Origin: Escherichia coli
Lineage (GTDB): Bacteria; Pseudomonadota; Gammaproteobacteria; Enterobacterales; Enterobacteriaceae
DNA: 64,000 bases
Assembly (NCBI RefSeq): GCF_009931435.1
Contig: NZ_CP043414.1
Reading direction: 5' to 3' (one strand)
The stretch's first letter is position 1, and each line of letters begins with the position of its first letter. Made by a program: the position numbers and the translations under genes. Under the pieces are notes generated by a model. It did not search any database, was not told where the DNA came from, and worked only from the letters and a program-made list of their open reading frames with translations. Shown here piece by piece: positions 13,966-13,989 of this stretch.

Positions 13966-13989
13966 ACTTTAGTTACAACATACTTTATT
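13966..13989 (-). other. replication terminus site TerB
   Basis: Minus-strand read gives AATAAAGTATGTTGTAACTAAAGT with the GTTGTAAC Ter core, just upstream of tus. Confidence 0.8.

Follow-up and report, generated by a model that had tools for sequence, protein, structure and literature searches.

A TerB replication terminator beside tus in an Escherichia coli chromosome, with a natural one-base variant in its variable end

In Escherichia coli K-12, Tus occupies the replication terminator TerB in ChIP-seq, and TerB arrests replication forks and mediates the autoregulation of tus (PMC8707476, PMC10331603). It is described as lying within or overlapping the tus promoter (PMC8707476, PMC8347550), in a layout relative to tus for which the wordings "11 bp upstream" and "10 bp region" are both in use (PMC8707476), and at 1.68 Mb it backs up terC, located at 1.61 Mb (PMC10331603). 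A Ter site just upstream of the tus ATG is also found in the type I traps of Edwardsiella tarda and Dickeya (Toft et al. 2021, PMC8707476), where this site, Ter1, is both a barrier and the tus operator (PMC8707476, PMC10331603). No barrier of a type I trap lies further inside than this site; in E. coli, and by synteny also in the DNA analysed here, the site next to tus comes second, behind TerC. In the mousetrap model of fork arrest C(6) flips into a pocket of Tus, and the importance of the G.C(6) base pair was shown in the same work (PMC4499146). The conserved Ter core is defined as position 6 and positions 8-18 (PMC8347550, legend of Fig. 3), while positions 1-5, 7 and 19-23 are variable among functional sites (PMC8347550), and terB itself varies by 1-2 SNPs per 23 bp (PMC10331603).

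The window, i.e. the whole stretch of 64,000 nucleotides of an E. coli genome that was analysed (contig NZ_CP043414.1), carries next to tus a 23-mer, 5'-ATAAAGTATGTTGTAACTAAAGT-3' on the minus strand, which is almost certainly the chromosomal E. coli TerB with a naturally occurring change at the 5' end, where the sequence is not critical (Table 1). A preliminary description had placed a Ter element of 23-24 bp at 13966-13989, and this element is real, with a perfect core and 20 consecutive positions identical to K-12 TerB (AATAAGTATGTTGTAACTAAAGT); the alignment that it had called for gave a match at positions 4-23 and differences at positions 2 and 3. Its length stands for the 23-mer, whereas the 24-base span (plus strand ACTTTAGTTACAACATACTTTATT, reverse complement AATAAAGTATGTTGTAACTAAAGT) is one base too long, since base 13989 lies outside Ter and is part of the upstream TATAAA box, and a one-base shift of the register gives at least 14 mismatches to every Ter site. 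The longer span is explained by an extra A in the AT-rich end. The GTTGTAAC core is also present as described, although its strand has to be corrected to minus, the same as that of tus.

Every 23-mer of the window was scored on both strands against the 12 conserved positions (G6 and 8-18). Only the TerB site, with G6 and ATGTTGTAACT at positions 8-18, agreed at all 12, and the runners-up were five sites with 2 mismatches; mismatches at invariant core positions, named beforehand as evidence against TerB, are thus absent. The G.C(6) base pair is intact, with G at minus-strand position 6 and C on the plus strand at 13983. Between the last Ter base and the A of the tus ATG the distance is 11 nt, in agreement with the 11 bp reported at the outset, and the identification as TerB is supported by sequence, position, neighbouring gene and orientation, all of which fit.

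Table 1. Coordinates of the terminator, the adjoining genes and the putative tus promoter elements in the window
Feature	Positions	Strand	Basis or remark
TerB, 23-bp Tus-binding replication terminator	13966..13988	-	K-12 TerB identity and perfect core
Ter position 1	13988		Non-permissive end
Ter position 23	13966		Permissive end
GTTGTAAC core, Ter positions 10-17	13972..13979	-	Read from sequence
C(6), cytosine opposite G6	13983	+	Read from sequence; role from PMC4499146, PMC8707476
Spacer GGTTAATATT, 10 bases, Ter position 23 to tus ATG	13956..13965	-	Sequence
tus, DNA replication terminus site-binding protein, 309 aa	13026..13955	-	Pfam PF05472, E 2e-136
Putative extended -10: TG (13997-13996), n (13995), TATAAA (13994-13989)	13989..13997	-	Inferred
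Putative -35, TGGTCA, 4/6 to TTGACA	14012..14017	-	17 bp upstream of TATAAA
rstB sensor kinase, upstream neighbour	14032..15333	-	Stop codon 43 bases from Ter position 1
fumC, class II fumarase	11626..13029	+	Converges on tus; ORF ends overlap 4 bases

The genes around the site are arranged in the order fumC-tus-rstB-rstA, and 5,421 of the 5,426 complete E. coli genomes show synteny in the tus region; all E. coli genomes with a match carry an annotated tus. Over its first 25 kb, where uidA, ydgA and pntA are located, the window is 99.1% identical to the best E. coli match. On this synteny, the locus is the E. coli equivalent of K-12 1.68 Mb, with the same fumC, rstB and rstA neighbours, and the site shares with K-12 TerB its locus, strand relation to tus, 10-base spacer and orientation to dif. 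For the tus region itself (13000-14400) the identity to most complete E. coli genomes is 94-95%, with a best value of 98.3%, while the 25 kb around tus show 95-99% identity to nearly all genomes and 99.1% to the best one. This higher divergence of the tus region relative to its surroundings suggests that distinct tus haplotypes may exist within the species.

The encoded Tus was compared with the crystallised K-12 protein (PDB 1ECR/2I06), with which it shares 300 of 309 residues (E 8e-203); the nine substitutions are I23A, H27E, N64K, D65E, S68A, L71I, K119Q, A221T and N225D. Residues E49, I79, F140, H144, G149, L150 and R198 are unchanged, as are the DNA-contact residues that were checked. These are the residues that we take to be critical for the lock and for DNA contact, following the structure papers on the Tus-Ter lock; a literature search for the named lock-pocket residues gave no match. 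Given this list, the gene beside TerB is read as encoding the cognate Tus with an intact cytosine pocket.

The direction of replication in the window was deduced from its polarity markers. The plus strand has a positive GC skew (+0.041 overall, and positive in 7 of 8 blocks of 8 kb), and it is favoured by KOPS motifs (4:0) and by Chi sites (9:5), indicating that the normal fork runs from low to high coordinates and that dif lies beyond the high-coordinate end of the window. Ter position 1 (13988) faces higher coordinates and position 23 (13966) faces the normal fork. The polarity markers and the synteny with K-12 thus show the orientation expected in a fork trap, permissive to the fork coming from oriC and with the non-permissive face toward dif. 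In the window we found no dif (the best match has 9 mismatches in 28 bases), no matS match and no second credible Ter. The preliminary placement of the window in the chromosomal terminus region holds in a broad sense, although TerB is the second barrier on its side and not the innermost one. The site is of use mainly as a map landmark, placing the window at the margin of the replication fork trap and showing in which direction this region is replicated.

In the explanation of the site as TerB, the sequence, gene identity, position and orientation were computed, and the lock mechanism and autoregulation come from the literature. A Tus monomer, encoded immediately downstream, would sit asymmetrically on the 23-bp site. 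The normal fork, which runs toward higher coordinates, would meet the permissive end (13966) and displace Tus, while a fork that had passed the terminus and arrived from the high-coordinate (dif) side would meet the non-permissive end (13988). There, the helicase is expected to unwind G.C(6), upon which the plus-strand cytosine at 13983 would flip into the cytosine pocket of Tus, the Tus-Ter complex would lock and the fork would stop. For such a dif-side fork the geometry that we infer from the mousetrap model has the helicase on the minus strand, with C(6) carried by the displaced plus strand. A TerB in this standard position and orientation, next to an intact tus, is already known and is textbook material.

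The difference to K-12 concerns TA at positions 2-3 in the window against AT in K-12, which is equivalent to one extra A (AATAAAG versus AATAAG); the K-12 TerB sequence with its native flanks was confirmed from a published oligonucleotide (PMC4499146) and from an aligned K-12-like genome. In an alignment of the rstB-tus intergenic region of the window and five E. coli genomes (A1), no variation is seen at G6, at positions 8-23, in the 10-base spacer (identical in all six sequences) or at the start of tus, and the differences are confined to Ter positions 1-5 and 7. Four alleles are seen in this alignment: AATAAGT (K-12-like), AATAAGG, ATTAAGG and ATAAAGT, the last one in the window and two other genomes. 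The alleles AATAAGG (APEC E16002) and ATTAAGG (GN04592) occupy the same locus, with the same G6 and positions 8-23, and have G at position 7 without the extra base, whereas the window keeps T7. A G at this position is presumably also found in TerC, TerG and TerI. We further compared the site with the sequences that we take to be those of TerE and TerA. It matches TerE at positions 2-20, with mismatches only at 1 and 21-23, and TerA at positions 5-23, and both share with it the core and G6; in contrast to TerB they lie at other loci, on the opposite side of the trap and in opposite orientation, and are not linked to tus.

Among the 5,426 complete E. coli genomes, a 59-base probe for the extra-A allele has an exact match in 262, and the corresponding K-12 allele probe in 2,329. 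Its occurrence in 262 genomes indicates that selection tolerates the extra-A allele, and on these counts the window allele is a recurrent minority polymorphism rather than a private lesion. Judged from its position, the one-base variant is probably harmless, being located in the end of Ter that is dispensable for Tus binding and locking, and the extra-A allele probably behaves like K-12 TerB. The two counts are a small descriptive addition to surveys of ter conservation, and the variant is a minor natural polymorphism that opens no new question.

Upstream of the site we identified putative tus promoter elements, in which the TG, TATAAA and TGGTCA motifs are invariant in alignment A1. The TATAAA box directly abuts Ter position 1, whereas in K-12 TerB it overlaps the 23-mer by one base, and the extra-A allele would thus put the Tus operator one base further from the tus -10 box than in K-12. 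A generic sigma-70 consensus scan returned no promoter at rstB-tus, because the box reads TATAAA and the scanner demands a T at position 6 of the -10 hexamer. A transcript starting about 7 bases after the putative -10 would begin inside Ter, so that bound Tus would block it. The site lies between the -10-like box and the tus ATG, and most likely Tus bound there would repress its own gene.

A rival reading, which we consider unlikely, is that TerB is here only a Tus operator for the autoregulation of tus and rarely or never stops a fork. Forks normally fuse between the innermost TerA and TerC before they reach TerB, TerB is not innermost, E. coli being assigned to the type II traps, where the site linked to tus is a secondary one (PMC10331603), and the site abuts the conserved -10-like box. 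[quoted passage not shown] In the window, moreover, neither the core nor G.C(6) is altered and the site faces the right way, and the roles of operator and barrier are compatible with each other.

The extra-A allele accompanies a diverged tus/promoter haplotype with nine Tus substitutions, and the window and one of the two aligned extra-A genomes also have a replaced 12-bp promoter spacer. That the extra A and this haplotype set a different level of Tus autoregulation, and hence of fork-trap stringency, in roughly 5% of E. coli genomes is conceivable, but we regard it as quite unlikely. The spacer in question (14000-14011 on the minus strand, A1 columns 30-41), between the -35 and the -10, occurs as two very different haplotypes, GGCTGTCGATAC in the window and in strain MFDS1022581, and AGTCACCAC(C/G)A(C/T) in the others, and the difference resembles the replacement of a short stretch more than an accumulation of single point mutations. 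At 13995, the "n" of TGnTATAAA, the minus strand of the window has T, and all five aligned genomes have C. None of the 5,426 genomes matches the segment 13941-14010 at 99% or more.

It is very unlikely that the one-base difference weakens the site, i.e. that TerB is in decay here, with Tus locking less well or tus being repressed differently. Positions 2-3 do differ from K-12 and the spacing from the -10 to the core is increased by 1 bp, but positions 4-7 and 8-23 are unchanged. TerE, in the sequence that we take for it, has the same TAAAGT at positions 2-7, and the presence of the exact allele in 262 complete genomes argues against a recent defect. The T7 replisome slows at A(4), just before G.C(6) (PMC4499146), so that bases near the non-permissive end have some effect; nevertheless, positions 1-5 are part of the variable portion of functional Ter sites (PMC8347550).

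A chance Ter-like sequence without function is vanishingly improbable, for although short Ter-like cores do arise, as seen in the five window sites with 2 core mismatches, shuffled copies of the window would contain the 16-base pattern AGNATGTTGTAACTAA, at up to 2 mismatches, only 0.12 times, against one occurrence here with 0 mismatches, twenty consecutive TerB positions lie at the exact K-12 distance from tus and the site is conserved across E. coli genomes, and a chance match is ruled out by the identity to K-12 TerB, alignment A1 and the pattern expectation.

Matches to the short pattern with one mismatch are at chance level in the window (3 found versus 1.78 expected). A Ter-like sequence, CGTACAGATGTTGTAACCATTGT, is present at 38377-38399 on the plus strand, inside ynfE (37718-40144, minus strand), and has an intact GTTGTAAC core. 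It is the best candidate for a second Ter but was rejected as such, with the essential G6 replaced by A, T18 replaced by C and a direction opposite to that of TerB, and a chance match would account for its sequence.

Between rstB and tus, a 7-bp perfect inverted repeat, GCCTGAC/GTCAGGC (14009-14015 and 14031-14037), spans the rstB stop codon and extends toward the putative -35. A hairpin or terminator between the two genes was rejected, since the predicted RNA fold does not surpass that of shuffled sequence (z = -0.48); a scan for terminator-like sites was negative, and the inverted repeat is not followed by a T-run.

Four PLSDB records filed as plasmids (NZ_CP134663.1, NZ_CP141089.1, NZ_OL790696.1 and NZ_CP090612.1) carry fumC-tus-rstB. 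A plasmid-borne tus-TerB was rejected, as the records have sizes of 4.8-4.9 Mb, or 420 kb in one case, and are non-mobilizable; they are probably mislabelled chromosomal sequences.

At the other end of the window, from about 45500 to 64000, a Qin-like lambdoid prophage adjoins rspB. Its genes include integrase, excisionase, exonuclease, dicB, ydfC, hokD, cspB/cspF/cspI, essD, rrrQ and gnsB, and E. coli STEC308 matches the region at 99.2% identity. The drop of the GC content to 0.40-0.47 is due to this prophage.
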